DNA of 64,000 nt, from positions 7,006,001 through 7,070,000 of the forward strand of contig CATNEN010000002.1 in the NCBI GenBank assembly GCA_950097015.1, read 5' to 3'. Below, piece by piece: positions 52,301 to 64,000 of this stretch; the stretch's first letter is position 1; every line of letters begins with the position of its first letter. The notes beneath the pieces are model-generated. The model did not search any database and had not been told where the DNA came from. It worked only from the letters and a program-made list of their open reading frames with translations. Made by a program: the position numbers and the translations under genes. The DNA comes from Macrostomum hystrix (taxonomy: Eukaryota > Animalia > Platyhelminthes).

Positions 52301-53253
52301 TGACTTTCTCATCGGCAGCCAGTGTACACTTCACTGTGCCTTGGAGGTTGGCCCTCAAGGGCGTAAATTGCACGTCAAGCCCACAAGCCTTCTCTCCTCG
52401 GTTGCACCCCAAATGAATGTGGCCTCGCCGCGGAATCGAGCTCAGACCTTGGTGCGCGAGGCAAAAGCGTTAGACCGCTCTCACCCAACCTCCCATCTAG
52501 ACACGTTGTACTTCATATGCTTTTGAAGCAGTTATTGTGGTAATTTTAATATCAGAATCCAAGAAACCAAGCGCGAAAAACGCCCACCTCAAACAGAAGG
52601 TTGAGAGCTTCTTCTTCCGTCTGCGCCAGGTGCACATTCAAGCCTTTGACGTAGACTCCGCCGTTCTCTTCGGCGATGACCAGCGGGCTGGTGGCTTCCT
52701 GACTACTGGGCATTGTGCCCAGCAGGTCAAGCATTGTGTCATTGTAGATCTCCAGGTAGGTGATGCGTACAGTGATGGCCAGGTCGGTCTTATTGCCGAT
52801 CTCCTTGTACAGGTGGCTCAGCGCGCGAGGCACGAGGCCGCGATGATGGAAAATCTCCGTGACGCCGGTGATGGTGAAGGTCTTGCCAGCGCCCGTCTGG
52901 CCGTAGCACATGATGGTGCCATTGTAGCCGGCCAAGCCACTCTCGATGAGATCGGCGCCAAGGGTCTCGTAGACGTCCTGCTGCGAGGCATTGTGGAAGA
53001 TGCCATCGGTGCGGAAGACCCACTCAGTGCGCTGGTTGCTGGCAAAGCCACGCTGCTGTTGCTGCTGCTGCTGCTGTTGCTGCTGTTGCTGTTGGTCTCC
53101 GGCTCGCGGCATGCAGATCTGCAGCGACCGGCCTTCCGGGTCCAATCGGAGTACTTCGTCGGCGAAGTTCTGGCTGGGCCGGACTCGAACCCAGACCTTC
53201 ACCTTCTTGCTGCGCTTGCCGCCGCTCTTCATCGTTGCGCGCTGCGGGACCAT
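46397..53253 (-). CDS. KIF9: Kinesin-9 family motor, ~828 aa; exons 53253-52588, 52120-51731, 51621-51544, 50453-50385, 49202-49098, 48884-48347, 47718-47416, 47347-47118, 46504-46397
   Basis: KVKVWVRVRPSQNFADEVL, YGQTGAGKTFT (P-loop), YLEIYND, NKNSSRSHTIF, FVDLAGSER, INKSLSFLEQ and HVPYRQSKLTHYLKDSIGG, then VQRYIDGDLDEID and EFDKWYAESF. All eight introns are GT-AG and phase-compatible. Confidence 0.95.
46600..47045. repeat. 44-bp minisatellite (CCGCCAAGTCTCTCGAACGGACTAATAACATCAAAGGAGAGTTA)
   Basis: In the last KIF9 intron. Confidence 0.92.
47970..48295 (+). mobile_element. tRNA-derived SINE copy with intact head
   Basis: A box GTGGCAGAGCGGTTAA, B-box-like GAGCTCGATTC, head ending CCA at ~48045, then the shared body. 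Confidence 0.88.
49375..49860. repeat. 32-bp minisatellite (TTCTTCAGGTCACTGTCAACTGCTACCCCCAG)
   Basis: About 15 copies in a KIF9 intron. Confidence 0.95.
50615..51515. repeat. 22-bp minisatellite (TAGCCTCAGAATCCTCAGTATC)
   Basis: About 41 copies in a KIF9 intron. Confidence 0.95.
52180..52500 (-). mobile_element. tRNA-derived SINE copy in KIF9 intron 1
   Basis: Minus-strand head GGGTGAGAGCGGTCTAACGC...GAGCTCGATTCCGCGGCGAGGCCA, then the shared body and an ATT-rich tail. Confidence 0.88.
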
Positions 53254-55624
53254 CGGGCTGGGTCAGTTTTCTCTGGGCTGAGAATTTTGGACCCCGCCAG
53301 CTCTCTGACCTGCACCGCGCCGCGATACACTATAGCTCACTTATTAAAGCTTTTGTGCTCATAGGCATTAGATGCGATATATTTTGCTTCCTATGTATTT
53401 ACATAACAGACTAGATTTACCATAGACTATAGCTTAAAAGTCGCGTTCATTCTGCTTAAGATGTCGATTTCAAGGCAAAACAAAACGTAAGCCCACAACA
53501 CATTACTTCTGTGGTTTTATCGATCATTTAGAAACTAAGCAATTACTGCTAAAAATGTAAAATTAGGCGTTGAAAAAAACAAATATTAATGCCCATTACT
53601 ATAGTGTTAGAAAGCAAAAATGTGTTAACCAACTTCAAATATTGAACTCCTACAAACAAATAAACTCGGAGCTAATCATATAATGGCATAATCACTCGCT
53701 ACTTTGATTTTGATGCACAATATGCGAATTATATACGTACTTGATCTTAAGCAGTCATGGCGGTCAAATGGCTGCTGCAGTTAAAAGTATCAGATATTTC
53801 CCTAACTCCCAATTGGAAAAATTCCTTTGATCTAATTAAGACTAAATTAATCCAGTACAATCACAAATATATGATAGATCAACTCTAGATATTACATAGT
53901 GCTAATATAATACCATGATATAATTGTTTGTATTTTGTTTATTTATACTTTAATTTATACCTTAAATTTTAAGGTATTAGGCCTATATATCTAAAAACGT
54001 AAAAACAACACCTCCACAGGCAGGATAATAGAAAGCTTTAGAATATTTCCACCACAAATTTATATAAAATACAAGTAAGCAAAACTATAGTAAAGTGCTA
54101 TTCTTATTATTTCAATACATACACTGATAGTATAGAATCGCTGTTTATCGATAAAAAAAGAATTAATAGATTTTTCATATTTAGAAATTTCACTAACAAC
54201 TTTTAGTCATAGCGAGAAATTACTAGCTTAGAAATTGTATATAACAAAAAAGTGAAAAAAAAGTGATTTTTTGCTTGTGTTTGACTCTTTGATGGAATAA
54301 AAACAATTTTATATCCAAAGTTTGAGCGAATTATTCAAGCTAATACTAAGAAAAATTGATACAAGGCTTCATTCACCTTATTTTTATCTTTACACGCAGA
54401 AAGAAAGGTGAACAGCACCTTATTTTACGATTTACGCAGTAACTATGGCTTCAATGGCATAAACAAAATTGGCTTAAAACAAAACATATATTTGTGTTTT
54501 GTATATTTTTTGAACAAAAACTAGTTTTTTTACTATATTTTGCTATAAAGACTTAAAATACAAACACAGGTAAAATCGTTACGACTAAATTTCCTAATAC
54601 GTGTATATTAGCGATAAGCTTACGAATTGTGTGCTCACTACGCGATCTCCTTTTCGAATTTATCGCTTTTATCGATTCAAATATTATCCACAATATCCGA
54701 AACTATTAAAATACTCCTCACATACCTTTCTAATTCATGCGCCAAAATATGTCAAATGGACCCGAATCTGTACACGTATTTTTATTAAGCTTAACTTCAT
54801 TGTTAATGTGATTTAAATAAAAAACAGTTTTAGATAGGCTTTTCTAATGCATTTCATGCCCAGTGAGGGCTCCATTAGCAATTTAATTGATTGCGTCAGA
54901 GCCAGTTTTGCGAGCGTACTAATAAGAGGCCACCCGTAGGGTGGGGAAAGGCAGCTAATAGTAGCTTTCTAATGATACAGCTTAATCTTCCTATAGGACC
55001 TGTTGCAAAAATTAATGTTTACCTTACAATACAATTAGCACGTGTATTACTTTCATAGTACGTATTTCTAAACGCACCTTCATGGATCGCGACGGACGAA
55101 TCACTTGGTGATATTGACTCATGTGTGAAAGAACGTGAATGATCGATAGTTTGTTACATAGTTTCTTTTATACATTATCAATAATAACAATAATTTTAAT
55201 AATGGTAATGAGGTAAAGTCCATCCCTTTTCCACCTTTTCTTGCCATCCAGACTAGCTTTGAGACTTATAAGACAACCCTGACTTAGCATAGCTCTTCTT
55301 GTCAGACAGGACTGTTAAATCCCAAACTCTGATCGAGAGAACTCATATCAACAATTTGAGCAACCGCTTCGACTTGACCGGCAGACCCGATCCTTAGCCT
55401 TGAGCTCCGGTTCCAGCCTTCGGAGACTCATCTAAGATAAGTGGGACTATACTCTTGTTATCTATAATTAATATCTTTGCGTGATCCAACATCCATGTGC
55501 AGTGTATATGACAACATCGCTGATTGCGAAATAAAATATCTAAGTTGAAGGGTAAAACATCAAGGAAAACCGTCGACCAGACCTCCTGTCTCCTTATTCA
55601 ATAATAGGAAAGATAACCGGATCC

Positions 55625-55990
55625 TTAGTCCTAGACATATTCCTAGACCTAGACCTATATTAGACCTAGACCTATTCCTAGACCTAGACCTATAGACCTA
55701 GACCTATTCCTAGACCTAGACCTATAGACCTAGACCTATTCCTAGACCTAGACCTATAGACCTAGACCTATTCCTAGACCTATTCCTAGACCTATTCCAA
55801 ACCTATTCCAAGACCTATTCCTAGACCTACCTACACCTATTCCTAGGCCTAGACCTAGACCTATTCTTAGACCTATTCCTAGACCTAGACCTAGACTAGA
55901 CCTAGACCTATTCCTATTCAAAGACCTTTTCCTAGACCTATTCCTAGATCTAGACCTATTCCTAGACCTATTTAGACCTATTCCTAGACA
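55625..55990. repeat. Hexamer array of CCTAGA and CCTATT units
   Basis: Read directly. Often arranged as CCTAGA-CCTAGA-CCTATT. Confidence 0.92.
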
Positions 55991-56084
55991 TATTTTCCTC
56001 GCTCGCACTCACTCTCTCTATTGAAATTGCAATAGCGGCAATTCAGCCCGGCTGTGTAGTCTATGGTTTTTTATATAGCAATTC

Positions 56085-56305
56085 TTATGCAGCAAAAGAG
56101 CCCGGCCGAGTCCCCTATGCTTTCTTATGCAGCAAAAGAGCCCGGCCGAGTCCCCTATGCTTTCTTATGCAGCAAAAGAGCCCGACTCAATCCTTAATGC
56201 TTTCTTATGCAGCAAAAGAGCCCGACTCAACCCTTAATGCTTTCTTATGCAGCAAAAGAGCCCGACTCAACCCTTAATGCTTTCTTATGCAGCAAAAGAG
56301 CCCGG
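56085..56305. repeat. 40-bp minisatellite (ATGCAGCAAAAGAGCCCGGCCGAGTCCCCTATGCTTTCTT)
   Basis: About 5.5 copies in two variants. Confidence 0.92.
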
Positions 56306-56680: not shown

Positions 56681-57100
56681 ATGAATGCTCATCCTGTGGC
56701 GCTGTTCGGCTCGCCGGCCATCGTGGCACTCCTGGCCAGATGCGACATCGCCTGCCTGGCCCCGTTCCTGGCGCACCGAGGACGACTGGAGCAGCTGACC
56801 TGCCTGCAGCGCCACTGCCCGAATGCTGAGCTGAATGCCACCCAGCTACACACCTTGCTGAAGAGCCTCCTGGACTGGCTGCTACAACACCAGACAGCTG
56901 CGGGCTACGAGACTATCCTGGAGGTGACCTGCCTAACAGAGAACGAGGCTTTCGACTTGGCCGAGCTGCTAGGCCTGCTGGAGGACACCTGTTCGGAGCT
57001 GCAGCACATTCTACACGGGCTGGACTACTGGCGCGGCGTGCAGCAAAGGGCAAGACTGCGAGAGTTGTTCCGGAGTCGCGAATATCGAATGGAGCAGTAG
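56681..57100 (+). CDS. 139-aa helical protein, possible CARD/death-fold
   Basis: GC-rich ORF in AT-rich DNA with host-like codon use and AATAAA at 57176-57181. Hydrophobic pattern ALLARCDIACLAPFLAHRGRL...SLLDWLL...GYETIL...DLAELL resembles CARD helices, by eye only. Confidence 0.6.
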   Translation: MNAHPVALFGSPAIVALLARCDIACLAPFLAHRGRLEQLTCLQRHCPNAELNATQLHTLLKSLLDWLLQHQTAAGYETILEVTCLTENEAFDLAELLGLLEDTCSELQHILHGLDYWRGVQQRARLRELFRSREYRMEQ

Positions 57101-57254: not shown

Positions 57255-57387
57255 AGTACAGTTCGTGGTGCGCGCACAATCCCTAAGAAATATATACATA
57301 AGACGATGCGAGGTGCTTATCTACCTAAAAATAGCAGGCAAGTCCTTATATATTTTTAAGTAATGTGCGCGCACTATGAACTGTACT
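57255..57387. other. Inverted-repeat module A
   Basis: Left arm AGTACAGTTCGTGGTGCGCGCAC pairs with right arm GTGCGCGCACTATGAACTGTACT (two G-T mismatches). The inner TATATA-containing segments pair partially. Confidence 0.9.
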
Positions 57388-57482
57388 TCTAGCTAAAAGT
57401 ACACAATCAACTTAACCGGGATCCGAATTAACCTAATTAAGCACCTATTAATAGAATCTGAGTCGATCAGTTTAAAACTATA

Positions 57483-57520
57483 AGATCAATATGCGCGCAC
57501 ATGTGCGCGCATATTGATCT
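57483..57520. other. Perfect 38-bp palindrome A
   Basis: AGATCAATATGCGCGCACA|TGTGCGCGCATATTGATCT. Confidence 0.97.
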
Positions 57521-57739
57521 ACTAGAAGTAGTAGTAACACTGGTACTATCTGCTGCTCATCCTAAATAGCCTGCTCCTCCTCCTTGGGACGTACTTGGGA
57601 CTCTATTATTAATAGCGAATCCCACCCTGTTGCACCCAGTTGAAGTTGAGTACCTGGGACTGCGTTGGCTTTCTGCAGCCTGCTCATTTTCATACATCCA
57701 AATTTGAACGCGCCTATAATTAACCTGCGGAAGCACAGA

Positions 57740-60535
57740 ATGTCGTTCAACTTTTCAACCGGCTACGACAGCGACGATGAGCGAATTGCGGCCGCGCTGG
57801 ACGAGTTTGAGAGAGTTGCCCAAGATAGTAACTCCGCCGGGCCGGTAGCGTCATCAACTCGCCAGCCACCATCACAGCGAAAAAGAAAGAGCGCTCCCTC
57901 TCAACGTCAGATTGTCAATGCAGCAGCCGCAGAATCTACGCCAGGCCCAAAGCGTATATATACTTTCACCCCAGTGCAGACAGCAGCGGTGGCTAACATC
58001 AGCAGCGACGCCGACGACTTCAGCCTGCTGCCATTGAGCGGTGTCATGCGCCTAAACACTGGAGAGCAGCAGCCTGCCAGTGACCAGATGTCCACAGGCA
58101 ATCAGCAGCCACCGCCTGCCAGTATATCGGCCGTCTACGCGCCCATCTCCCACGCGATGGCAGCCTCAGCCTCGACTGCGCCAAAAGGGAGCATGCTGGC
58201 TTGGCTCGGAGATCAGCACCGGAGTGCCAAGAAGGCCACCAGCAGATGGTCATCGCCGGCAGCGATCAGGCACGTCAGGCGACATGCTCCTGCCAACTGC
58301 GGCGATGGCGACGGGGCGGCGTCTGATGCGCCCGACATGTCCACGGCAGCCCTACAGCCTCGCAGCCCCGTCGTCATCGAGATTGAGGACGTCGACGACG
58401 AGCGCGCCGATAACGGCAGGCCGACAGCGGCAACTCGCACAAAGGCGGAGCCATCGGAGCCTAACGAGCAGGAGGCGGCGATGGATAGCGACGACCGCGA
58501 TGCTCTGCAGGCACTGCTGGACTACGAGGCGTCCACCGTTGCGCTGTCAGTCGCTGCAGATCCCCCACCGTCGGGCGCTGATGCGGAAATGGAGGAGGCC
58601 GCCAGCACGGTGCCGAAACCGCCTCAAGTCGCGGCCGACCAACAACAGCAGCCAGGGAGGCGGAGATTCCGTTTCCAGCGGCTCGAAACGACTGCTCCCG
58701 CTGTTGCTGCTGCTGCCGACTGCTCCATTGTGGGCGCCATGGTGCCAGACTCGCAGCCCGATGGCCGACGATTAGCAGTCGCCAAGACCACACCGTCTCA
58801 GCGTCCGGAAGATGAGACGACGGCCTACGTGGTGTCGCCTGGCACAGCGGCATTCGCAGCAGCCGTGGTGGCCGCTATGAATGAGGCCAGCCAGTCCGTC
58901 CCTGTCGGCGAGGAGTGGTGGCGCATATTAACACCACAGCCGCTGCAGCAACAAGAGCAGGTGCAGCTCGAGCGTCCTCCCTCGCTGGTGCCCTTCAGCT
59001 ACAGTCCGCCGGCGTCTGCGGCACAGCTTATTCACTTCCTCCAGCAACAGCAGGGGGACAGCGAGGCGAGCGGGAGCGGGGTCGGCGGCGCCAGAGGACA
59101 ACGAGGCGGCCGAGGGGTGCGACGGCTGGGCCAAAATCCGCTGCTTAATGCGGCAGCAGCACAGCAGCAGTTCACTGTGACGCGCTCAGTCAGCCGGCCG
59201 CTCGCAATGACCGGTGCTGCTCCTGCGGAGCGACTGCCCGAGGACAGCGGCATTCTGACCGGGCGCCGCTATTTGCACGTCTTCCACATCGACAAGGTGC
59301 GCTTCGTCGGTGAGTCACTTGCTTTGTTCATAAGCTCTGAATCATATAACCAGCTGCTGGCATCCACTGTTTCCATGCTGCCTACATAAACAGGTCGTGC
59401 CAAAGTATATCTGGGCGAGGCTCTGGAGGCACACTGTGTCGAGCTCGTCCTGGCGTCCAGCCCGGGCCTCTGCGTCGGCATGGATGAGTTCTGCGACCGG
59501 CGGCTAGTCGCTGACCCGCTCTCCGTCGACGAGATGGAGCAACAGCAGCAGCAGCAGCAGCAGCACAGCGAGTATCGGCCACACCGCACTCTGTCCGGCT
59601 TCGTGCGCCTGGAGACCAACGCGGCCGGCTGGCATTTGTACGAGCTGCTGTTCAGCCTGCTGCCTAGCCGAGACGAGGGACGCTGCTTTGTGGTGCCCGA
59701 CCGGACCACCCTGACGCTGTGCGGCGTCCGCTCGCCAGACAGTGTGCTGCGGAGCCTGACGCAGCACGACGGCTACCCGCTGCTGATCGGGATCGGCGCC
59801 ACGCAGTGCAGCATGCTGGTGCAAGCGACTCGGTGGGCGCTGTCCTACCCGCTGACTGCCAACCTGCCCGACCAGACTGACGGCTTCTTGTTGGCCCACC
59901 AGCAGATGCGCGCCACGTTGCTGGGGGTCTTTAGAGACGTGCAGCGCCAGCGCCGGATTCGCAGGGAGCAGCTCGCCGGCTGTTCCGCATGTTCCACCGA
60001 GGCTGCCGACATTAGGAACCTGTGCCCGCTCCGAGAGGCCGTCTGCACAGCCCTTCGCCACCAGTCGGGCGTTGTGTACCTTTACGGGCCGTCGGGAGTC
60101 GGCAAGACCACCGCCGTCGAGCGCCACCTGGGCCAGGAGCGCGTCTTCTGTCCGGTCATCAAGCGCTTCGGTGGCAATGACTTCATGTTCGACGGCCTGG
60201 ACACCGCGCGCCACTCCGTCATCTTTCTGGACGAGGTGCGGCCGCACATGTTCGAGGGCGGCGACCTGGAGACCACGCTGTTGCGCCTGCTGAACGGCAA
60301 CAGCTTCCTGGTCAATGCGAAGCACCAGGCGCACGTCTACCTGGACTGGGGCCAACGGCTGGTGATCATGGCCGGCCACGCCTCACCTGACGACTACCCG
60401 GCTGACGTGCAGCGGCGCCTGCGCAACGAGGGCAACACGTGCGTCGAGGTCGACCACGACATCGAGGCCTGCCAGGGGGGGTGCCGCCAGCAGCCAATGT
60501 TCGGAGCCGCCGCCGCCAACGCCCAGGTTGAATGA
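57740..60535 (+). CDS. Spliced Rep-like protein, ~903 aa (exons 57740-59309, 59394-60535): disordered N-terminus, degenerate HUH-like region, SF3 helicase
   Basis: An 84-nt GTGAGT...AAACAG phase-1 intron removes the in-frame TAA and joins the 574-aa and 351-aa ORFs. Walker A GPSGVGKT (60086-60109), FMFDGL..HSVIFLDE (Walker B, 60221-60235), LLRLLNG..VNAK (B'), RLVIMAGH (motif C region) and arginine finger QRRL. Confidence 0.85.
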
Positions 60536-62008
60536 GGCCGCCTTTATATGTCTGTCTGTCTGTCTGTCTATTGCTAAATTATTTCATCCCTGCGCCCGTA
60601 TTTTGTCTCCACCACCATCTTAAAGCGGGTTAGCAGATGTGGGCAGGCAGAAATAGCTAGACGGCCAAAATATTACATAACAAAATATTAGTCCTTATTG
60701 GGCTAAATAAGGAATGGCTTTTGGGTTCGGCTGTTTAACAGCACCATATATTATAATCTATACCTGGCACGCAGTTGCAGAAAACGGGGTAGCAGAAATG
60801 TGCGCGGACTATAGCAATTTATAAAGCATTAGATGGGATTAGTTTAATTGAATTAAATAGCGCGCAGTGTTTTCCTAGTGTTTTTGTTGCTCGTCAGTCT
60901 AGATGTGCTAAGAGATGGAGATGGCATTTATTACTTGTTCTCAGGATCGCTTCTCGCTCTTATCTGATTGCTTTTATTTTGAGTTCTATTATTTCAGAGT
61001 CAATATTTTCATTTAGCATATGTCGCAGGCTGTCGACAATTTCAATTGTCCCCATTTTATTGCCGTTCTACTTTTTCTGTACCGGCTCCATTAAACTTTT
61101 TAATCCCTCACCGCCAACAAATAGTTGTTGTTGTTGTTGCTGTTGCTGCTCTCCAACAAGTTAGATAGATGGGCAGCTAGAATAATTAACAATGATTGCC
61201 TACCTTGTGGAGCGCAGATAAAAATCACTTTAAACGCAGTCGTCGTCGTTGGGGTCGCAGCTGGAGCGGAGCAATCGGAACAGTGTAGGGGGCAGTCGAA
61301 ACGAAATAGTAGATCACGAAGGAGCTGATTTGGTTGATTAATAGAGTTGGTATTGAAAATCAAAGTGTAGCTTGGGAACGATCGAGTCTGTCTTAATCGA
61401 TTGGCATAGAGAAATCAATCAGTGCGCGAGCTAGCTCTCTTTGACTTGTGTGCTCAAGATGAGCAATACAGTCCTTCCTGATAAAATTTAGTTTCTATGT
61501 GCCTAAGCTTTGTCTATGTCTTGAGTTTATCGCATTCCTTTATTAATAGTAGTCTAAAAATAATTTTACACACACGCAGTTGTTATGTGCTTATTTGGGC
61601 GCTATTTGTGTTATTATAATTTATAATAATTGAGCTATAATAATTTGAGCAAGTATACTAGTATATGGTATGAAAAGCTGACTGCATGCATTAATGTGTG
61701 AATAAAGGACATAAATCAAGAAAAAGCATTCGATCAAGAACTACATGTAGACGGTACGTATGGATATGAAAAAAACTAATTTAAGATGAGAATCAACAAG
61801 TGGCATCTGCAACAACAAGCAATTAAAATACATGTAGTAATGTGTGCATTAAAATACAATTTGGATGGACGCAAAAAGCTATACATATAATATAGTACGA
61901 TTTAATAACGGCAATTAACAGCTGCATATAGTGCTACTCAGTTATTTATAGATTTTATATGAAAAACTAAAATTTCAAATTCGCGCTAAATTCTACGAAA
62001 TTCAATGT

Positions 62009-62125
62009 GTACAGTCTGTAGTGCGCGCACATTCCCTAAAAAATATATAAGGCATGTCAGCTCTAATTTTAGAACGACGATCCTTATATATTTTTTAAGT
62101 ATTGTGCGCGCACTATGAACTGTAC
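62009..62125. other. Inverted-repeat module B
   Basis: 44-nt arms (62009-62052 and 62082-62125) with 6 mismatches around a 29-nt loop. The right arm is almost identical to that of module A. Confidence 0.92.
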
Positions 62126-62332
62126 CTAAATCTAAAATTAAATTGCTTACTTGACTACTATAAGTAGAGCAGTTAGCAGCATTTGTTTAATAATTGTCAG
62201 ATAAATCTATGGCTAATTAAATAATTCTATCAACAAAAACAATAAAGTATAATATTATCAACGGGAGTAATCAGTCAATCAATACAATCAATATTCTTAA
62301 CTATAGCATATAATATCAATTATAATAACATT

Positions 62333-62370
62333 AGCGTATAAAGCGCGCACATGTGCGCGCTTTATACGCT
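62333..62370. other. Perfect 38-bp palindrome B
   Basis: AGCGTATAAAGCGCGCACA|TGTGCGCGCTTTATACGCT. Confidence 0.97.
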
Positions 62371-62600
62371 GCAGTAACATGCAGTCAAACGAATTCAATT
62401 ATCCCTCCCTCGAAGGCCTGTGCATGTTTTCTCTGCGTGTTTTCTCTCTGTCCCGGCCCCCTTTATCTGCCCCACGGTGTTTTTCACTCACTATTTAAAT
62501 ATTTAATAATATTTTATATTATTAATATAATATAAATTAAATATTTTATATAAAATCTTAAATAAAGCAGGCAGACAGACAGGCGGGCAGGCAGGGCGAA

Positions 62601-64000
62601 TCAATCAAAATTATGCTCCGCCACTGAGTGCAGCCGCCGTCGCTTTCCGGCCACCGGTCTACCGTGCAGGACTGCGTCGGCTCGTTGGGTGCTCGCCGCC
62701 ACCTCCCCACTTCCACCAGCCAGGCTGCTGATGAGTCCCTGGGTCGGCGGCCTAACTATTGGTCGCATCTCTGCGTCACCTGATGGCACCACAAACCGGC
62801 GGACAATATCGCGGCTGCGAATTACTGTGCCCATCTCGGTGGCCATCTGGGCATTGTGCCCATAATTGTACCGGATGACAGCTGCAGATGTGCCGTGCGC
62901 TCTGGCGAACATATCCAGCTGCTCCGGCTCCATCATGAGCACTACGGCACAGAGGGTGCGACGCCAGTGCGTGGCCACATAGTGCCGACCCAGTACTCGC
63001 TGCCCGCCTGCGCTGATCATGCGGCTCATTGCCGACTGGCTGTACACACCGCCGAACACATCAATGAAGACGGTCGGCGACTCCGGTTGCTCGATGCCGC
63101 GAGCAGCAAGCGACGGCACGATATATTCGTCGTGCAGGCGCAGCAAGGCCTCGCAGAATATATCCGGCAGCACCATCCTGGCTGGGTCGCCGGAGTGTCC
63201 GACCTTGTGCGGCACTTCACGCAGCGGCAGGACGAGATGCGAGTGCCCAGCCAGATCGGCAGCGGACGGCCCGCTCCCCCCATCTGCACTTTGCGTGTGT
63301 TGGCGGAACAGCTGTTTTTGGTCGGCCGACGCGTTTCGCCGAACCGAACGGTCGACCAGGTGTCGCCGTCTCAAGTATATCCACGGCAGAAGTCGCAGTG
63401 CCTGCTCGACGCTGCAGTAGAAAAGCATCTCCTGCACTATCCGCCGCAGACATCCGGCGACTGAAGGCGCCATCATCTGCTTCGCCGTTGTCTTTAGTGT
63501 CATCAGCGATGCCATCAGCGACCACACCTGCTGCCTGCATGCCCCATTCGCCGTCGACTGGCAGTGAAGACCAGCTGTGTCTTTGGAGCATGATGAAAAA
63601 GCGGTCTCGACGGGCGAACACGGCATCAACCTCGTCTACGTTGACGTAGGTGTTCATAAATGCCACCTGCCGCTCATTGTGGCCAAGCTTGTAGACGGCC
63701 TGCATAGTATAAATGTGGTTGCGTTTACTTCTAGTAGATAGCAGCACGAAACCAAATAGAACTAACTGTCATTAATGCAGCTGCTGTGCAGCTATAGCCT
63801 ACCTGCTGTATGGCTCGGACATTGCCGAACTCGCCACGAGCCTGCTGCACCACGCTGCTAAGGCGGGCGATGAGAGCCTGCTCAGCCGCCAGCGGGTTGT
63901 TGGCCTTCTGCGCCAACTGCATTCTCCAGCAGACGCCACTGCCGACAGAGTCGACGTCCTCAATAGCAGGGCGCTCGGTGTCAGGCGAGGGTGAGTCGAT
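62601..64000 (-). CDS. Tyrosine recombinase (phage-integrase family), spliced and 5'-incomplete; exons >64000-63803, 63699-63528, 63460-62601
   Basis: Catalytic-order motifs: IYLRRRHL (first Arg, ~63370), PHKV (Lys, 63206), VFIDVFGGVYSQSAMSRMI, THWRRT (HxxR, 62969-62958) and ARAHGTSAAVIRYNYGH (Tyr, 62864). Intron 63802-63700 (GTAGGC...ATGCAG) is well supported. Intron 63527-63461 (GTGTGG...CTTCAG) restores the frame but has a weaker donor. Confidence 0.82.

Follow-up and report, generated by a model that had tools for sequence, protein, structure and literature searches.

The Macrostomum hystrix DNA analysed here (contig CATNEN010000002.1; 64,000 nt, referred to throughout as the window) carries at 57740–60535, on the plus strand, a gene whose predicted product resembles the replication initiators (Reps) of CRESS DNA viruses (circular, single-stranded and Rep-encoding), and which lies between two hairpin modules and beside a probable tyrosine recombinase gene. 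Read from motifs and alignments, the product is with good confidence a superfamily 3 (SF3) helicase joined to a dead nuclease. The features of the gene are as follows.

57740–59309, plus strand: predicted exon 1; about 500 low-complexity residues rich in Ala, Ser, Pro and Gln, an RKRK cluster, and finally the opening strand of the HUH-like domain
59310–59393, plus strand: predicted GT-AG intron, phase 1, holding an in-frame TAA (splice signals, GC content, gap in a homologue)
59394–60535, plus strand: predicted exon 2; remainder of the HUH-like domain, followed by the oligomerisation helices, the Cys cluster, the SF3 ATPase and the C-terminal His/Cys motif
59582–59611, plus strand: site corresponding to HUH motif II, without the His-x-His pair that intact Reps have (alignment and predicted strand)
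59741–59770, plus strand: site corresponding to HUH motif III, with Ser and Gln in place of the catalytic Tyr and Lys of intact Reps
59981–60046, plus strand: CxxC ... Cx6C cluster, a predicted zinc site between the oligomerisation domain and the ATPase
60086–60421, plus strand: SF3 ATPase motifs (Walker A 60086–60109, Walker B 60218–60235, motif C position 60362–60379, Arg pair 60413–60418)
60455–60484, plus strand: C-terminal His-x4-Cys-x3-Cys motif

The gene consists of two open reading frames (ORFs) in one frame, interrupted by a single internal stop, the TAA at 59387–59389. The GTGAGT donor at 59310 is the only GTRAG within 57740–60535, and the CAG ending at 59393 is the first in-phase acceptor among the four candidates examined; together they delimit an 84-nt segment with both phases equal to 1 and a GC content of 43%, versus 64–67% in the flanking coding DNA (third-position GC is 86% in exon 2). 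A 526-aa ENA protein, P0011, aligns in a single run from the last part of exon 1 into the first part of exon 2, with a 28-residue gap exactly at this segment (41% identity, E 1e-23). Be its source RNA or an intron-less gene, this protein exists without those 28 residues, which makes the spliced reading of about 903 aa very likely. Once the segment is spliced out, the frame is intact over 2.8 kb and the predicted product has 903 aa. An earlier sequence-only reading of this DNA had proposed the same intron, with the same donor, acceptor and matching phases, and the signals, GC content and P0011 gap bear it out: by sequence, the two ORFs are almost certainly one spliced gene. That reading also placed both ORFs correctly in one frame, but the first ORF measures 549 aa from the ATG at 57740, and the 574 aa then given would require a TTG start at 57665. 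A contig from X1, one sequencing run of unknown kind, is identical to the window over 59247–59401 and is unspliced. Like the window protein, P0011 starts with a long stretch of low complexity, and the final ~60 aa of exon 1 are common to both; the basic RKRK cluster is a possible nuclear signal.

A homologue search of 1.84 billion representatives returned 20 matches. Setting aside P0015, a proteasome-type AAA ATPase by Pfam, and P0019–P0021, which are outside Reps, the family comprises the window protein and at least 16 others, many of them fragments (alignment A3 excludes P0004, P0011 and P0015). Across the aligned rows, at 24–71% identity, three domains (HUH-like, oligomerisation and SF3) persist together with the Arg pair and the Cys/His motifs. 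The sole close match among proteins is a hypothetical one from Macrostomum lignano, 70% identical across 60% of the query. The Cys cluster that the sequence-only reading had noted ahead of Walker A is present as described: CxxC occurs in 8 family rows and in 0/4 outside Reps tested, and Cx6C, directly ahead of the ATPase, was read from the alignment in 8 rows. The C-terminal His/Cys motif, found in 7 family rows and again in 0/4 outside Reps tested, may form a second metal site. Another M. lignano entry, P0004, is named as a G-protein-coupled receptor and contains a degraded helicase copy in residues 97–250; the gene model is probably chimeric and overlies a further copy. Scans of IMG/VR and JGI metagenomes yielded no relative of the Rep family or of the recombinase candidate, ORF C; tblastn against plasmids and phages gave nothing or only matches at E 3–9; and a profile search with alignment A4 recovered only two proteins, both already known. 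The one metagenome locus, L006, was dropped as an unrelated AT-rich contig.

Walker A and Walker B at SF3 spacing, the B′ Lys and the Arg finger were all recognised by alignment and profile comparison, confirming the Walker motifs and Arg pair of the sequence-only reading. Its observation that motif C lacks Asn likewise agrees with the alignments, in which Gly-His occupies this position in the window protein, P0002, P0003, P0004 and P0009, Asn is found in P0006, and the intact Reps have Ser-Asn. The intact Reps used for comparison, with HLH and YxTK motifs, are full-length P0019 and P0021 and the Rep of a viral contig, L001, which matches Gemini_AL1 (E 2e-12). This IMG/VR contig (L001:1–3201) also carries a 540-aa ORF resembling a large capsid protein, an arrangement that we take to be crucivirus-like.

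For the window protein, Pfam gave weak P-loop matches only, with no match to LT (large T) or E1 profiles; RNA_helicase, a profile named in the sequence-only reading, was matched, but weakly (E 0.015). Atlas assigned the helicase protein to CRESS Rep clusters at 0.92–0.95, and a profile of 15 family rows matched a profile of three outside Reps with a probability of 98.3 across the oligomerisation and ATPase domains. An AlphaFold model built on 18 rows had a mean pLDDT of 67, mostly 80–95 in the helices and ATPase (an earlier two-sequence fold, pLDDT 31, was discarded). Foldseek of this model against the PDB ranked adeno-associated virus (AAV) Rep68 first, with Lon proteases intermixed, a BFVD search returned Reps and NS1 among the named rows, and in the wide VIA fold search the ATPases of vientovirus Rep and porcine circovirus 2 (PCV2) Rep took ranks 1 and 2 of 48,161; the ATPase fold was closest to the Rep/NS1/LT/E1 helicases. 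On these sequence and model data the C-terminal domain is a CRESS-type SF3 helicase, as originally proposed. The narrower label "circovirus-like" did not hold, in that the nearest intact Reps, P0019 and P0021 (on 2.3–2.5-kb Logan contigs), are unclassified and have as best viral Pfam match the papillomavirus E1 helicase PPV_E1_C, weak and below cut-off. These two may be kin to the "RepE1" cressviruses of PMC11071296. Phylogeny, also invoked by the earlier reading, gave a partial answer: a helicase tree of 14 rows, with no LT or E1 sequences, grouped the family at 85/88 but was poorly resolved, and because that branch also includes the long-branch AAA control P0015, a single origin of the family is neither shown nor excluded by the tree.

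The domain upstream of the helicase is putatively HUH-like by its alignment and its predicted order of secondary-structure elements, which fits HUH; fold searches were dominated by the ATPase. The motif III Tyr and Lys are absent in 5/5 family rows that cover this region (the window protein, P0005, P0007, P0013 and P0018) and present in 3/3 intact Reps, and the neighbouring Thr and Asp are retained in those five rows. The motif II His pair is absent in the window protein and P0005, with one His left in P0007; the register here, of which we are moderately sure, is less certain than at motif III. Nicking requires the catalytic residues of these motifs (PMC6668415, PMC8780604), motif III being defined as YxxK in PMC6668415. 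As the rows sharing the Tyr/Lys loss are only 24–42% identical to the window protein, the loss is a family trait rather than recent decay. The name "Rep" given by the sequence-only reading therefore stands for the CRESS-type helicase but not for a working rolling-circle Rep.

These data bear on another account of the locus, namely that a CRESS virus of the ordinary kind was endogenised here, or that the gene encodes a Rep or transposase active in rolling-circle replication, possibly decaying. The domain order and helicase motifs are indeed those of CRESS Reps, and a NANTATTAC-type 9-mer lies at 60668. However, the catalytic Tyr and Lys are missing even from the distant rows, the uninterrupted frame does not suggest decay, no capsid ORF was recognised, and the 9-mer occurs five times in the window with no stem around it among the inverted repeats listed; no canonical CRESS nonanucleotide was found in the window. 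This account is already largely refuted and very improbable: the locus is not an ordinary circovirus relic.

The Rep-like gene is flanked by two hairpin modules in the same orientation and is faced by ORF C; the sequence-only reading mentioned neither the modules nor this recombinase-like neighbour.

57255–57525, unstranded: hairpin module 1; imperfect hairpin 57255–57387, perfect 38-bp palindrome 57483–57520, four copies of a 9-bp motif, z −8.2
62009–62370, unstranded: hairpin module 2; imperfect hairpin 62009–62125, perfect 38-bp palindrome 62333–62370, four copies of the 9-bp motif, z −8.6
62601–63635, minus strand: ORF C, facing the Rep gene; candidate R ~63370, K ~63206, HxxR ~62969 and Tyr ~62870
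63636–64000, minus strand: predicted upstream part of the recombinase gene; coding-like, running off the window, with a 103-nt GT-AG segment at 63802–63700

The z scores of both modules were matched by 0/100 shuffles, and the 9-bp motif is present in eight copies in the window, all within the modules. The perfect palindromes that end the modules are the longest in the 64 kb; they have the same 18-bp core and differing outer arms, each still symmetric. An Rfam search gave no match. Three further candidates were set aside: occurrences of the 18-bp core in six viral contigs were put down to chance, no related gene being present there; an 8-bp word common to module 2 and phage N15 telRL was treated as coincidence; and a depth-76 X1 contig on module 2, with a broken core motif and many indels, was not used as evidence of high copy number. 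Separately, TGTC/GACA microsatellite tracts lie in mirrored arrangement at 60540–60570 and 62565–62595, after the stop codons of the Rep gene and ORF C.

ORF C was assigned to Phage_integrase by Atlas (0.93), with 10/10 named matches in that family or clan and 134/256 features shared. In a home-built profile of 27 phage and E. coli recombinase domains it ranked first of 162 window ORFs (6.1 bits, P 4.5e-4), scoring above 1000/1000 shuffles; HxxR and the region around the Tyr line up with the profile, and the second His is offset. The candidate R and K were placed by eye from tyrosine-recombinase motifs. We consider ORF C a probable tyrosine-recombinase catalytic domain, the call itself being weak to moderate; its gene probably continues through 63636–64000 and past the end of the window, judging from coding-like sequence.

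An alternative reading of this arrangement is that the gene was domesticated by the host from a CRESS Rep, the recombinase and hairpins being separate insertions (a Crypton-like element and miniature inverted-repeat transposable elements, MITEs). Its intron, host-like codon usage and long low-complexity N-terminus would suit a host gene, and the long hairpins begin and end as TA-flanked Tc1/mariner MITEs do. On the other hand, the modules stay similar for ~15 nt beyond where the MITE would end, and each long hairpin has behind it a further palindrome in which the same motif recurs. Divergent copies occur in M. lignano and in X1, and the homologues are singletons on short contigs rather than a conserved orthologue set. 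In X1, differing contigs cover ORF B (a smaller ORF upstream of module 1), the Rep gene at its 5′ end, and ORF C, with 15/25 listed differences synonymous (9/14 in ORF C) versus ~25% expected, at a depth of 3–8; this is modest evidence for copies under selection. We judge domestication rather unlikely.

Taken together, we favour the reading, at a probability of roughly 55%, that the Rep-derived protein is the origin-binding replicative helicase of an integrated mobile element with a tyrosine recombinase. The dead HUH domain would bind the hairpins at their repeated 9-bp motif, the Cys cluster would hold zinc and steady the hexamer, and the helicase would open double-stranded (ds) DNA for host polymerases, like polyomavirus large T and papillomavirus E1. 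Rolling circle would be neither started nor closed, since this Rep presumably cannot nick. The recombinase might instead cut at the perfect palindromes, making or resolving a circular (or hairpin-ended) form, formerly the job of the lost nickase, and could serve insertion and excision of the element as in phages. In Papovaviricetes, the same loss made the HUH domain an origin-recognition domain on dsDNA (PMC13595969).

Several points weigh against this reading. The splice was read from DNA signals and a homologue gap, and the codon usage of exon 2 (r 0.89 to five reference genes, one of them out of frame) fits a domesticated gene too. The HUH-like domain alone aligns weakly with intact Reps (hhalign E 0.02, motif III only), and the motif register consequently depends on the alignment running on unbroken into the next domain downstream. 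Without its Asn, motif C may confer a changed ATPase activity; Clp-type AAA+ domains equal Reps in Z, and the fold-search alignments are mostly of the ATPase. The recombinase call consists of an Atlas lead in which few features are shared and the 6.1-bit profile score, with nothing useful for ORF C in Pfam, PHROGs, NCBIfam, PDB or the homologue search; as assembled here, the ORF C gene also changes frame at ~63640–63550. The other copies seen are fragments, and the linkage of Rep and recombinase is known from this one locus only.

The surroundings of the element contain the following further features.

55626–56304, unstranded: tandem arrays near the probable left end (6/18-bp unit 55626–55989; 40-bp unit 56082–56304)
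56681–57100, plus strand: ORF B, 139 aa, Leu-rich, with two differing X1 contigs

ORF B probably belongs to the element. It had no useful match in Pfam, PHROGs, NCBIfam or PDB; by eye it resembles a death-fold (CARD-like) helical domain, a likeness not borne out by those databases. One X1 contig follows ORF B to 56927 and then continues as unrelated T-rich sequence, which suggests a truncated or interrupted copy elsewhere. The tandem arrays may be part of the element, by position only. Between them and the start of a kinesin gene, 53400–55600 is AT-rich (31–41% GC) and gene-free, and the left end probably lies there. Host housekeeping genes, intron-bearing, form a run closed by the kinesin gene near 53250; over 1–53300 they are densely packed, with long tandem-repeat introns, and by likeness we take them to include NOL10, NDUFAF2, a universal stress protein, TAF3, an RCC1-like gene, SURF6, HSPBP1, an SLC3 and a KIF9-like gene. 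On the other side the element leaves the window at 64000. No capsid was recognised among the nearby ORFs, and as the right end is outside the window, capsid genes may lie beyond it.

The locus could instead mark the border of an integrated dsDNA virus of larger size (polinton-like, a meldvirus or adomavirus-like), its dead Rep a captured accessory rather than a replicase. Captured Reps with a dead nuclease and kept Walker motifs are described, namely apvRep of avipoxviruses and U94 of human herpesvirus 6 (HHV-6) (PMC10193959); tyrosine recombinases are recorded both in polinton-like viruses (PLVs) and in meldviruses, while adomaviruses have CRESS-like Reps (PMC11071296, PMC11296320, 10.64898/2026.10.13.758929). 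The three Rep domains, Arg pair and added Cys/His motifs are, however, kept across the family, unlike in the mostly truncated apvReps; the Rep gene sits directly beside a hairpin module; and no relative was found among the IMG/VR viral contigs. We regard this origin as unlikely.

The favoured element, a Rep-derived origin helicase with a recombinase, can be set against known systems. With CRESS-DNA virus (Cressdnaviricota) Reps it has in common the collinear HUH-like, oligomerisation and SF3 domains, Walker A and B, the B′ Lys and the Arg pair; it differs in lacking the motif II and III catalytic residues, in the Gly-His at motif C, and in its ~500-aa N-terminal extension, Cys cluster, C-terminal His/Cys motif and recombinase neighbour, with no capsid gene seen. 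Unlike polyomavirus large T, papillomavirus E1 and adomavirus RepLT/RepE1, the window protein is integrated beside a recombinase and appears closer in sequence to CRESS Reps, so that its likeness to LT/E1 is probably convergent. The avipoxvirus apvRep and U94 are likewise dead-nuclease Reps with kept Walker motifs under purifying selection (PMC10193959), whereas the window gene is likely spliced, lies in an invertebrate chromosome and has added metal motifs, and genes typical of large viruses were not seen in the window. End modules made up of a helicase, inverted repeats and a recombinase have been proposed for PLVs (PMC11296320), and here, as in such modules of PLVs and virophages, a recombinase adjoins a helicase and inverted repeats; the window helicase is, however, a dead-HUH Rep and not a primase/PolA-SF3 fusion. 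Replitrons and Helitrons are also eukaryotic transposons with Rep-derived proteins and hairpins (PMC10288648), but both keep an active HUH, Replitrons being without a helicase and Helitrons having one of superfamily 1. Our literature search listed no description of an animal genome in which a CRESS Rep with a dead nuclease accompanies a tyrosine recombinase, nor of this family in Macrostomum; relatives could be present in Repbase or among the hundreds of viral maps that supplement PMC11071296. Recombinase genes of Cryptons bear introns, as the ORF C gene appears to; Cryptons are not known to encode a helicase.

The origin of dsDNA replicons with an inactive HUH domain, such as polyoma- and papillomaviruses, out of rolling-circle ssDNA replicons has been argued mostly from structure, with few intermediates. 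The present family still aligns with CRESS Reps at the level of single residues but is missing the catalytic ones and has gained predicted metal sites, which makes the switch testable with one protein. If the link to the recombinase is true, it defines a type of mobile element not found in print, in a flatworm that is probably a laboratory species, and there is a fair chance of a new element class. More tentatively, this could be a class of mobile DNA of animals, devoid of capsids, whose CRESS Rep independently became a large-T-like, zinc-bearing origin helicase and in which a tyrosine recombinase took over integration and resolution at palindromes; in parallel to the rise of polyoma- and papillomaviruses, this would represent a further, separate switch from rolling-circle to dsDNA replication.
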